From the NCBI RefSeq assembly GCF_003790525.1, contig NZ_CP033635.1: DNA of 64,000 nucleotides. The stretch is one strand, 5' to 3'. Below the pieces are notes generated by a model. The model saw nothing but the letters and a program-made list of their open reading frames with translations, had not been told where the DNA came from and did not search any database. The number at the start of each line of letters is the position of its first letter. Positions within the stretch are counted from its first letter, which is position 1. Source of the stretch: Escherichia coli. GTDB taxonomy: Bacteria; Pseudomonadota; Gammaproteobacteria; Enterobacterales; Enterobacteriaceae. Positions 26,108-29,762 of the stretch are shown here, in pieces. A program made the position numbers and the translations under genes.

Positions 26108-27433
26108 ATGAGCAAAGTAACTCCCCGGCCGAAAATCGGCTTTGTTTCCCTTGGCTGTCCGAAAAACCTTGTCGATTCAGAGCGTATTCTCACCGAACTA
26201 CGCACTGAAGGTTATGACGTGGTACCGAGCTATGACGATGCGGACATGGTGATCGTCAACACCTGCGGCTTTATTGACAGCGCGGTACAAGAATCACTGG
26301 AAGCCATTGGTGAAGCGTTGAATGAAAACGGCAAGGTAATTGTGACCGGTTGTCTGGGGGCAAAAGAAGATCAGATCCGCGAAGTCCACCCGAAAGTGCT
26401 GGAAATCACCGGGCCTCATAGCTATGAGCAGGTTCTGGAGCACGTTCATCACTACGTGCCAAAACCGAAACACAACCCATTCCTGAGCCTGGTGCCAGAA
26501 CAAGGTGTGAAACTGACACCGCGTCATTATGCCTATCTGAAAATTTCTGAAGGCTGTAATCACCGCTGCACCTTCTGCATTATTCCGTCTATGCGCGGCG
26601 ACCTGGTGAGCCGTCCGATTGGCGAAGTGTTAAGTGAAGCGAAACGTCTGGTTGATGCGGGCGTTAAAGAGATTCTGGTGATCTCGCAGGATACTTCCGC
26701 GTATGGCGTCGATGTTAAACATCGTACTGGCTTCCACAACGGCGAGCCCGTAAAAACCAGCATGGTCAGCCTGTGCGAACAGTTATCGAAACTGGGGATC
26801 TGGACACGTCTGCACTACGTTTACCCTTATCCGCATGTGGACGACGTCATCCCACTGATGGCAGAAGGCAAAATCCTGCCGTATCTGGACATTCCGTTGC
26901 AGCACGCCAGCCCGCGCATTCTCAAACTGATGAAGCGTCCGGGTTCTGTAGATCGCCAACTGGCGCGCATCAAACAGTGGCGCGAAATCTGCCCGGAACT
27001 GACCCTACGCTCAACCTTTATTGTCGGCTTCCCTGGCGAGACGGAAGAAGATTTCCAGATGCTACTCGACTTCCTGAAAGAAGCACGTCTGGATCGCGTT
27101 GGCTGCTTTAAATACAGCCCGGTTGAAGGTGCAGACGCCAATGCCCTGCCTGACCAGGTTCCGGAAGAAGTGAAAGAAGAACGCTGGAACCGTTTCATGC
27201 AGTTGCAGCAGCAGATTTCCGCCGAGCGCCTGCAAGAGAAAGTGGGCCGTGAAATTCTGGTGATTATCGACGAAGTGGACGAAGAAGGTGCGATTGGTCG
27301 CAGCATGGCAGATGCACCGGAAATCGACGGCGCGGTTTATCTCAATGGTGAAACCAACGTTAAGCCGGGTGATATCCTGCGTGTGAAAGTCGAGCACGCC
27401 GATGAGTACGATTTGTGGGGTAGCCGGGTTTAA
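26108..27433 (+). CDS. rimO: Ribosomal protein S12 methylthiotransferase (radical SAM)
   Basis: CxxxCxxC radical-SAM motif (CNHRCTFC), MTTase N-terminal and TRAM domains; 441 aa. Confidence 0.92.
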
Positions 27434-27617
27434 TTAATCTTAAGGCAGATCTAACAAGGATATTGTTCTTCGATCTGCCTCTGCTACCCTTCCCGATGTC
27501 CTACCCTTACGCACAAAATCCCCTGACGCATAAATCGAGAAAAATGTATCGTACTCGAGGCAACTCTCACTTTTTCACACCAAATTAAAGTTTTGATCGC
27601 AATTACTTGAAATAAGC

Positions 27618-27643
27618 GTAATGGTTACTATAGTAAACATTAC
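27618..27643. promoter_or_regulatory. Near-perfect inverted repeat upstream of the toxin gene; candidate operator
   Basis: gtaatggttacta / tagtaaacattac, arms match 12 of 13; lies just upstream of the SD (aagga) and ATG at 27659. Confidence 0.5.
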
Positions 27644-27658
27644 CACAAGGATGGATGT

Positions 27659-28045
27659 ATGGGTGTGTATAAGGCAAGACGATTCAGCCAAAGCACGAAA
27701 AAACTTGGTATTCACGATAAAGTTCTCATGGCTGCCGCTGAAGAAGTGATGCAGGGCATATGGGAGGCTGATTTAGGTAGCGGTGTCATCAAAAAACGTT
27801 TACCCCTCCAACAAGGAAAGAGTGGTGGAGCCAGAACAATTATCTTTTTTAAATCAGCAAATCATGTGTTTTTTTATGATGGTTGGTCCAAGAGTGGTCT
27901 AAGCAGTAAAGGAACCAAAGAAATCGAAGATGATGAACTGGCGGCCTACAAAAAAATGGCAAATGCATTTCTGGCCTTTAGCAATAAGCAAATAGAGGAT
28001 TTGATCGAAACTGGCTTTTTGATTGAGGTGAAAAATGAGCGATAA
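27659..28045 (+). CDS. Type II toxin, HigB-2 / RelE-like family
   Basis: 128 aa; GKSGGARTIIFF motif resembling the GxGGxRxI core of HigB-2-type toxins; toxin-first order with an 11-nt overlap onto an HTH gene; absent from this position in K-12. Confidence 0.7.
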   Translation: MGVYKARRFSQSTKKLGIHDKVLMAAAEEVMQGIWEADLGSGVIKKRLPLQQGKSGGARTIIFFKSANHVFFYDGWSKSGLSSKGTKEIEDDELAAYKKMANAFLAFSNKQIEDLIETGFLIEVKNER

Positions 28046-28364
28046 ATTACAAATGATGCTGGAAGATGCAAAGGAACTGAATGCACTGGGCCTGATGTCT
28101 GATAGTGAAGTTGATGCCATTGCCGTCATGGTCAAAGCTCGTGAAGTCAGCGCCCGTATAGCCAAAGTCAAATCAATGACGGGTGAAGAGATCAAAGCCA
28201 TCCGCACCCGATACGGCATGTCACAATCCGTGCTGGCACATACAATGGGAATGTCAAAAGAAAGTGTCTCGAAATGGGAACGTAATGAAATAAAACCGAG
28301 CGGCCCGGCATTACGTATTTTGAATACATTGGCAATAAAAGGGCCGGAAGTTTTTGCAAAGTAA
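28035..28364 (+). CDS. HTH (XRE-type) antitoxin, HigA-2-like
   Basis: 109 aa; C-terminal HTH (GMSQSVLAHTMGMSKESVSKWE) after an N-terminal extension; translationally coupled to the toxin. Confidence 0.7.
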   Translation: MSDKLQMMLEDAKELNALGLMSDSEVDAIAVMVKAREVSARIAKVKSMTGEEIKAIRTRYGMSQSVLAHTMGMSKESVSKWERNEIKPSGPALRILNTLAIKGPEVFAK

Positions 28365-28433
28365 AATGTTTGCAAATGATTTACCACATTCATTAGTACC
28401 CCTTGATTAAGGGGTACTAACACTATTCTAATT

Positions 28434-29762
28434 CTACTGCCAGCTAATCTGCGCCCTGCCGTTTTTCTTACTCTTATACAGCCGCTCATCCGCCAGCATT
28501 TTCAAGCGTTCGACGGTAGGACATTCATTTGAATGCGCTACACCGATACTGGTACTTAAATTAATGCTTCCCACCTGGAAATGAACGATTTCTTTTAGAA
28601 TCGATAGCAACTCTTCCAGCGTTCCACCCGTATAAATCACCGCAAATTCGTCACCACCGAAGCGGTAGACTTTACCTTTATCTACCGGGATCTGTGATTT
28701 AAGGATTTTCACCACTTTCATCAACACTTCATCGCCCAGCAAATGACCGAAGGTGTCGTTGATGTTTTTGAATTTATCGACATCAAAAAGACACAGATAG
28801 CCGCCTTTTTCCGGCAGGGCTTTTAAATCTTCGTCAAAGGATTTTCTGCCCATTGCTTTGGTCAGGTCATCCAGGAACGCCGAGTTATACAGACTGTAGA
28901 GTTTTTTGACATCGGCAGCCGAAAAGAAAAGCCCGCCATCCAGTACGCGTTCAAAATGGTTATTAATGATGGCTTCTTTCTCCACAACACCACGATTAAT
29001 CACTCTGCGTACCAGATAGAGGCAACTGGCACCCGATATCACTGCCACCAATGCGGCAAAGAAAATAATCAATGTACAGACCCGCAAATAAACATCTTTT
29101 TTATACGCAAATACGTACAATCCGGTCGGCAAATAGGCGAAGTGCTCCATCGCTTCCGAAACGGTGAAGATGGCGTTTTTAGCATTATATTCATCACCGG
29201 TCACCGGTTTACCGTTCTTAAACAGAGAGAACATCAGGTTCTCGCTGTCCATCGCCAGCGATTTTGACAGTAAAGAAAAACGTTCCAGACCAAGCAAAAA
29301 TATCAGACTGCGATTGTGAGTTACCGGATAGAGGTAATAGACGAAGGTTTTACCGTCAAAAGAGATAAACCCTGTATTTTTGACATGTCGATACTTCACA
29401 ACCTGCATAATATCTGCACAATAATTTTTCTCGAACTCCTTTACCTGAATACATTCGTCACTGGAAATCAGATAAGGACCGACATCGTACAAATAAGAGG
29501 GTGAAAGCGAGTCGGCGTAAGCTGTGCGTAAGCCAACCAACAGCTGTTCCTCCGTAGGATTTAGCGTGTTGATCAGATCAATTGCCACACTACGCCGATA
29601 TTCAGCAATATTTGCCACCGCAAAAGCAGTATCAATAACGGACTGTTTCAGGCCATACACCCGTTCCTTTACCATTTGAGTGTAGATCCCGCAGGCAACT
29701 GCTGAAATCATGATAAAAATCAGCAGACTGACTGTAAGTACGAATTTATTGATTCTGGACAT
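28434..29762 (-). CDS. dgcI: Diguanylate cyclase (GGDEF domain), membrane-anchored
   Basis: 442 aa; RFGGDEF active-site motif; synteny (yliF). Confidence 0.88.

Follow-up and report, generated by a model that had tools for sequence, protein, structure and literature searches.

A probable HigBA-2-type toxin–antitoxin operon in the rimO–dgcI interval of the Escherichia coli chromosome

The window analyzed here is a 64,000-nucleotide (nt) stretch of Escherichia coli DNA (contig NZ_CP033635.1), which is identical to E. coli SMS-3-5 (NC_010498.1) across the region examined. In this window, rimO ends at 27433 and dgcI, on the minus strand, ends at 28434, such that the two genes are separated by a spacer of exactly 1000 bp (27434–28433). 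The same genes are convergent in K-12 MG1655 and CFT073, where the spacer is only 46 bp. This difference had been anticipated for K-12 by an earlier reading made from the sequence alone (the sequence-only reading), which placed a HigB/HigA-like module in the additional DNA. The spacer contains two open reading frames (ORFs) that very probably constitute a chromosomal type II toxin–antitoxin (TA) operon of the HigBA-2 kind, with a toxin of the PF06296 family. The genes and their translation signals are as follows.

27659–28045, plus strand: toxin gene of the HigB-2 / PF06296 ("PF_RelE") family, 128 aa, predicted ribosome-dependent mRNA endonuclease
28035–28364, plus strand: antitoxin gene, 109 aa, with an HTH_3 match, HigA-2-like (RefSeq WP_001280945.1)
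27647–27651, plus strand: putative Shine–Dalgarno sequence AAGGA of the toxin gene, 7 nt 5' of its ATG, read from the sequence
28025–28030, plus strand: putative Shine–Dalgarno sequence GAGGTG of the antitoxin gene, within the 3' end of the toxin gene and suggestive of translational coupling, read from the sequence

The two ORFs share 11 nt (ATGAGCGATAA), and the toxin ORF contains GKSGGARTIIFF at residues 53–64. Two coupled ORFs of these lengths and with this overlap had been proposed in the sequence-only reading; the coordinates proved exact, and the internal GAGGTG is consistent with the coupling. These are not chance ORFs, because PF06296 matches the toxin with E = 7.9e-33 (residues 1–124 against model positions 1–120 of 120) and HTH_3, an XRE-type helix-turn-helix (HTH) domain, matches antitoxin residues 53–94 with E = 3.4e-9 (both Pfam).

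All 69 toxin homologues with precomputed Pfam annotation also belong to PF06296. This family, which carries the Pfam name "RelE", is that of Vibrio cholerae HigB-2, and its members are described as toxin-first, ribosome-dependent mRNA-degrading toxins (Gerdes, mBio 2025; PMC11980606). When a profile of 19 toxin homologues was compared with the Protein Data Bank (PDB), only HigB-2 chains were matched (E about 9e-5). The predicted structure of the toxin has a RelE/ParE (BECR) fold and is nearest to HigB2 according to Foldseek. The earlier assignment of the first ORF as a HigB-2/RelE-type toxin is thus supported by Pfam, the profile search, a significant match in the fold comparison, and the published placement of the family.

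The basic active-site residues are also conserved. In the profile alignment, residues K49, R51, R64, Y82, and K84 of V. cholerae HigB-2 (VcHigB2) correspond to K45, R47, R59, W76, and K78 of the E. coli toxin. Mutagenesis of VcHigB2 demonstrated that R51, R64, Y82, and K84 are required for activity (PMC5416850), and all five residues, K49 included, are listed as active-site residues in a study of Coxiella (PMC10098735). The four basic residues K45, R47, R59, and K78 are invariant in the alignments of 19 and of 41 homologues. Position 76 is occupied by Trp in 18 of the 19 homologues and by Tyr in the remaining one, and by Trp, Phe, or Tyr across the wider family. Among close relatives, W76 is conserved at 90% or more, and it is conserved across Enterobacterales.

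For the antitoxin, a phmmer search found V. cholerae HigA-2 (5jaa_A, E = 5.7e-4). A fused toxin–linker–antitoxin AlphaFold model was built from a paired alignment of 41 sequences, and the best Foldseek match for the HTH half of the modeled antitoxin is the HigA2 C-terminal domain (5j9i; template-modeling [TM] score 0.80–0.83, root-mean-square deviation [rmsd] 1.1 Å, 28% identity). Together with the HTH_3 match, these results agree with the sequence-only reading that the second protein is of the HigA-2 type and ends in an XRE-type HTH. The N-terminal ~47 residues are modeled as two helices (predicted local distance difference test score >90), which is compatible with a toxin-binding role.

The two genes are also paired in other genomes. 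When one genome per species was scanned, 181 relatives were identified in gamma- and beta-proteobacteria, and 80 loci were retained. In 75 of these, a homologue of the antitoxin gene begins at the toxin stop codon or shortly before it, in keeping with the toxin-first HigBA arrangement that had been suggested from the sequence. Both genes are under purifying selection. Relative to the orthologues of Enterobacteriaceae bacterium UBA5654, the ratio of nonsynonymous to synonymous substitution rates (dN/dS) is 0.079 for the toxin and 0.066 for the antitoxin, with dS close to saturation; dS is saturated relative to Kluyvera and Siccibacter, and overall dN/dS is about 0.05–0.08. Between SMS-3-5 and O157:H7 Sakai, the toxin gene has six nucleotide differences with one amino acid change, and the antitoxin gene has three differences, all of which are synonymous.

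Upstream of the toxin gene, a promoter-like sequence and a palindrome overlap.

27607–27634, plus strand: sigma-70-like promoter with −35 TTGAAA (27607–27612), a 16-nt spacer, and −10 TATAGT (27629–27634); 10 of 12 positions matched in a consensus scan
27618–27643, no strand assigned: 26-bp palindrome GTAATGGTTACTA|TAGTAAACATTAC, candidate antitoxin operator spanning the −10 box; inverted repeat with 12 of 13 positions complementary

The palindrome core TTACTATAGTAA is invariant in E. coli, UBA5654, two Kluyvera species, and Siccibacter (five loci in four genera). The −10 box falls in this invariant block, and the remaining upstream DNA cannot be aligned among the five loci. The core has one copy in the 64-kb window (0.04 expected), and in the other Enterobacterales loci fetched it always starts 24–42 nt 5' of the toxin start. 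At this location, more distant relatives have other palindromes, and for 21 of 76 loci no more than 5 of 100 shuffled sequences reached the palindrome. The operator of V. cholerae HigA2 is a single inverted repeat that extends from after the −35 box across the −10 box (PMC11006873). This layout is common to the site at 27618–27643, although the sequences are unrelated (GTAATGnTTACTA... in one and TGTACGC-N5-GCGTACA in the other). As judged from its sequence, the E. coli palindrome is therefore a candidate operator of the kind expected for a HigBA-2 operon, namely an inverted repeat overlapping the −10 box. Near-perfect palindromes of 41–51 nt (e.g., ATTGCCCGATATTACTATGGTAGTTATTACCATAGTAATATCGGGCATT) were also observed in Pectobacterium spp. 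(L050, L053, L055, L059, and L065), about 20–80 nt upstream of PF06296 toxin genes. These are much longer than the 26-bp element of E. coli.

Based on homology to V. cholerae HigBA2 and Coxiella ToxP/AntitoxP, the E. coli module may be expected to show toxicity, ribosome-dependent mRNA cleavage, neutralization, and autorepression. For toxicity, mRNA cleavage, and neutralization, the purifying selection on both genes and the high confidence of the modeled N-terminal antitoxin helices lend indirect support. The single promoter at 27607–27634 would produce a bicistronic toxin–antitoxin mRNA. The 128-aa toxin, with its BECR fold, most likely cleaves mRNA under translation after entering the ribosomal A site, through a RelE-like basic active site (K45, R47, R59, and K78) and the aromatic W76. 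The 109-aa antitoxin would be translated by coupling via the 11-nt overlap. Its N-terminal ~47 residues most likely bind and neutralize the toxin. Dimerization of the antitoxin would occur via the C-terminal XRE HTH, and its binding to the 26-bp palindrome over the −10 box would repress the operon.

One of the closest known systems is V. cholerae HigB-2/HigA-2 (VCA0468/0469; PDB 5JA8, 5JAA, 5J9I, and 8A0X). It has a toxin of the same family in a toxin-first operon, the same four basic active-site residues, a Gly/Lys-rich β2–β3 loop in the toxin (GKGKRGGS against GKSGGA), an antitoxin composed of an N-terminal neutralizing part and a C-terminal XRE HTH, and a single inverted-repeat operator over the −10 box. 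However, the V. cholerae pair resides in a superintegron cassette, whereas the E. coli pair is on the core chromosome. The toxins also share only about 13–16% identity in structural alignments. Several points weigh against assigning the E. coli pair to the HigBA-2 kind. A phmmer search of the toxin against PDB sequences found no match at E ≤ 10, and no NCBIfam model matches the toxin, such that its relationship to HigB2 is drawn from profiles and a predicted structure. The Foldseek TM scores are only 0.5–0.6. The catalytic Tyr82 of VcHigB2 is replaced by Trp76, which keeps the aromatic ring but loses the hydroxyl group. The E. coli toxin is 18 residues longer (128 compared with 110 aa), and its model includes an additional helix and strand at the C-terminus. 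In addition, the N-terminus of VcHigA2 is disordered and folds into a helix and a strand upon binding, whereas that of the E. coli antitoxin is predicted as two helices; the neutralization geometry may therefore differ. Finally, the searchable literature yielded no experimental study of this E. coli pair.

Two other systems are also among the closest known. The Coxiella burnetii QpH1 pair ToxP/AntitoxP (CBUA0028/CBUA0027) is a HigBA2 homologue in which ToxP is toxic and inhibits translation, AntitoxP neutralizes ToxP by direct binding, and the pair binds its own promoter (PMC10098735). Unlike the E. coli pair, it is located on a plasmid, the maintenance of which requires it, and Tyr is kept at the catalytic aromatic position. 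Similar in the organization of the antitoxin are the "relE-yiaG" modules of PF_RelE described by Gerdes in 2025, with E. coli VREC0535 as an example (PMC11980606). In these modules, a PF06296 toxin precedes an antitoxin that has a HigA2-like HTH and, at its N-terminus, two helices, and modeling suggested that neutralization occurs via antitoxin helices that contact the C-terminal helices of the toxin (PMC11980606). This model resembles the antitoxin secondary structure predicted here. However, the "relE-yiaG" toxins have extended disordered N-termini, whereas the E. coli toxin begins at position 1 of the Pfam model.

Other candidate identities were rejected. The K-12 systems RelBE, HigBA (YgjNM), and MqsRA belong to different Pfam families (PF05016, PF09907, and PF15723, respectively), none of which matches here; this disposes of K-12 HigB and, the toxin being PF06296, of MqsR. 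RelBE also differs in having the antitoxin gene first. The PF05015 profile of HigB of Rts1 and V. cholerae HigB-1 likewise does not match the toxin. For the antitoxin, MqsA was rejected because the E. coli protein has no Cys, and thus lacks the N-terminal zinc-binding CxxC domain of MqsA, and matches in the HTH half only and below the cut-off (TIGR03830, 47 compared with 61.8 bits; PF15731, model positions 53–125). K-12 YiaG was rejected as a relative given 27% identity across a 51-residue HTH stretch. Among published reports, an Acinetobacter "HigBA" paper concerns GP49-domain toxins of a family other than PF06296, and a Xenorhabdus "Xn-relE" paper contains no information that places Xn-relE in the PF06296 family.

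Of 5426 complete E. coli genomes, 1138 carry the 1-kb segment. Among the 1146 matched places, all but one are chromosomal, and in 1129 of the 1138 carriers the segment is contiguous with both flanks (rimO and dgcI). Based on individual reference strains checked, which also underlie the statements on phylogroups, the carriers include SMS-3-5, O157:H7, O55:H7, and APEC O78:H4, and the segment is absent from K-12, BL21, H10407, an O145 strain, and CFT073. The absence of both genes from K-12 indicates that they are not housekeeping genes of this position there. RefSeq annotates the products as "type II toxin-antitoxin system RelE/ParE family toxin" and "helix-turn-helix domain-containing protein"; the O157:H7 Sakai counterparts are ECs_5400 ("addiction module toxin RelE") and ECs_5399, respectively. 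Two atypical records were noted. In NZ_CP172816.1 (E. coli BS-01, H100), the module is partial (47% coverage and 92.7% identity, in two pieces) with the toxin annotated beside dgcI, and this copy looks partly deleted or decayed. The 1198-bp contig JAIJJM010000872.1 ("MAG: Collinsella sp."; locus L009) was binned as actinobacterial but encodes a toxin with 100% amino acid identity to that of E. coli; the contig almost certainly belongs to E. coli and was mis-binned.

The patchy distribution raises the question of whether the segment was recently delivered into the rimO–dgcI spacer by a mobile element, as the word "inserted" in the sequence-only reading implied. The segment has a G+C content of about 41%, compared with about 54% in rimO, and it is missing from about 79% of complete genomes. 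Moreover, relatives are found on plasmids of Coxiella, Piscirickettsia, rhizobia, Providencia, and Moellerella, and Coxiella plasmids were matched directly by the toxin in a tblastn search (19 records). However, the neighboring dgcI and pdeI are just as AT-rich, and the module is accompanied by neither an integrase or transposase gene nor a flanking direct repeat or target duplication. Between SMS-3-5 and Sakai, the module is 98.5–99.1% identical and the flanking genes are 97.5–99.1% identical, such that module and flanks have diverged at an equal rate between these strains of phylogroups F and E. The near-constant contiguity with both flanks also argues against recent delivery. Only three PLSDB records match the toxin at 99% or more, namely NZ_CP134663.1 (4.90 Mb), NZ_CP141089.1 (4.94 Mb), and CP088669.1 (730 kb). 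These appear to be whole or fragmentary chromosomes that were filed as plasmids, the 730-kb "plasmid" being implausibly large, and the E. coli copies are otherwise all chromosomal.

Comparison with other genera points in the same direction. The same pair adjoins gsiD in Kluyvera (bssR, TA, gsiD) and in UBA5654 (rimO, a SUKH-family ORF, TA, gsiD), and its amino acid identity to the E. coli pair (68–78%) lies within the range of the flanking orthologues (52–96%). A recent mobile insertion is therefore unlikely, and the sequence-only reading is not supported in this respect. Rather, the E. coli chromosome shows a long-standing polymorphism for presence or absence of the module, which is not recognizable as a mobile insertion; either ancient presence with losses or one old acquisition would account for its history. 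The location beside dgcI–pdeI was described correctly in the earlier reading, but no link to these two genes was found, and the adjacency looks incidental because Kluyvera and UBA5654 keep the pair without dgcI/pdeI. The SUKH-family ORF of UBA5654 (DIJC01000022.1; L010:2738–3688) encodes a 316-aa SMI1/KNR4 protein (SUKH-1/SUKH-6; Pfam E = 5e-21) and lies between rimO and the TA pair. SUKH-family proteins are often immunity proteins of polymorphic toxin systems. The presence of this ORF suggests that the rimO–gsiD interval is a variable spot across genera.

One hypothesis is that the module is not a selfish addiction cassette but has been domesticated for a host function, for example as a translation brake triggered by stress or phage. 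The rimO/bssR–gsiD address is kept in E. coli, Kluyvera, and a related genus, and there is strong purifying selection on both genes and on the operator. These observations are consistent with domestication, which nevertheless seems rather improbable. If it were true, the Trp-for-Tyr variant and the two-helix N-terminus of the antitoxin would mark a mechanistically distinct HigBA-2 subclass.

Another hypothesis is that this is a working TA system with abortive-infection phage defense as its main role, and such a role had been raised in the sequence-only reading. RelE/ParE-superfamily modules have been discussed as defense toxins (PMC11980606), there are weak PHROG matches, and in Escherichia phage PhiR12_3 a gene described as "Antitoxin to RelE-like translational repressor toxin" lies next to a distant toxin homologue (37% identity). 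However, no PADLOC-DB v2 model matched the toxin, and those matching the antitoxin were generic HTH models only. Throughout the 64-kb window, the DNA is K-12-type backbone; all neighbors are housekeeping genes, and no defense island, integrase, or prophage is nearby. The module is also stably syntenic and does not resemble a hot spot. A primary role in phage defense is thus unlikely, and the earlier suggestion gained no support. As for the phage gene itself, the match (PV340552.1, 4290–4973; L095:2451–3134) lies in the early region of a temperate phage, extends beyond an annotated 85-aa "hypothetical protein", and spans two annotated genes, such that the toxin gene may have been mis-called or split.

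The replacement of the catalytic Tyr raises the further possibility that the toxin is catalytically dead or domesticated and that the pair persists only as a transcription-factor module. The Y82A mutation cuts VcHigB2 activity 1200-fold (PMC5416850), and several truncated toxin variants of 73–108 aa are present among E. coli protein clusters. However, Trp76 is conserved across Enterobacterales at a position that is aromatic family-wide, and the intact 128-aa form predominates in E. coli (cluster P0001, 666 member sequences). Loss of activity is very unlikely because the four basic active-site residues are invariant and purifying selection on the toxin is as strong as that on the antitoxin. Finally, a ParE-like toxin that poisons DNA gyrase without cleaving mRNA is extremely improbable because the nearest structures and the sole sequence-profile matches are HigB2 mRNases; in addition, the RelE-like basic active site is conserved, and the characterized PF06296 members reported so far all inhibit translation (PMC11980606, PMC10098735).

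The remaining features of the spacer are two hairpins that flank the operon.

27443–27480, plus strand: hairpin AGGCAGATC...GATCTGCCT, likely rimO terminator of the TA-carrying allele; inverted repeat, RNAfold −16.2 kcal/mol
28393–28420, no strand assigned: 12-bp perfect stem with a 4-nt loop (TTAGTACCCCTT GATT AAGGGGTACTAA); inverted repeat, 100% complementary

The first hairpin is located just 3' of the rimO stop codon and takes the place of a different hairpin in the K-12 spacer (CAGGCCGGGC...GTCCGGCCTG). The second is located between the stop codons of the antitoxin gene and dgcI and is a probable shared terminator of the convergent transcripts; RNAfold of the segment that contains it (28365–28433) gave −17.7 kcal/mol on the plus strand and −23.0 kcal/mol on the minus strand. 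A terminator consensus scan did not call this hairpin because no T-run follows the stem. An Rfam scan of 27300–28600 at E ≤ 1 found no RNA family, and thus no hidden RNA element in the region. The K-12 spacer and the 1-kb allele have nothing in common except TTAAT following the rimO stop codon. At the other end, the dgcI stop codon (28434–28436) is TAG in the TA-carrying allele and TAA in K-12, which places the allele boundary at or inside the final codon of dgcI.

Taken together, the module is an ordinary one that is already annotated in public genomes and hence already known. Only four of its features are mildly unusual: the replacement of the catalytic Tyr by Trp, the longer C-terminus of the toxin, the two-helix N-terminus of the antitoxin, and the chromosomal address conserved across genera. 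Its identification has little importance beyond annotation and bears on no open question. It would add one RelE-superfamily mRNase toxin to O157:H7, O55:H7, SMS-3-5, and about a fifth of sequenced E. coli strains. Because the module is absent from K-12, this strain provides a clean host for testing it. The module may also be useful as a lineage marker and as a further HigBA-2 example for comparing variants of the active site and of neutralization.
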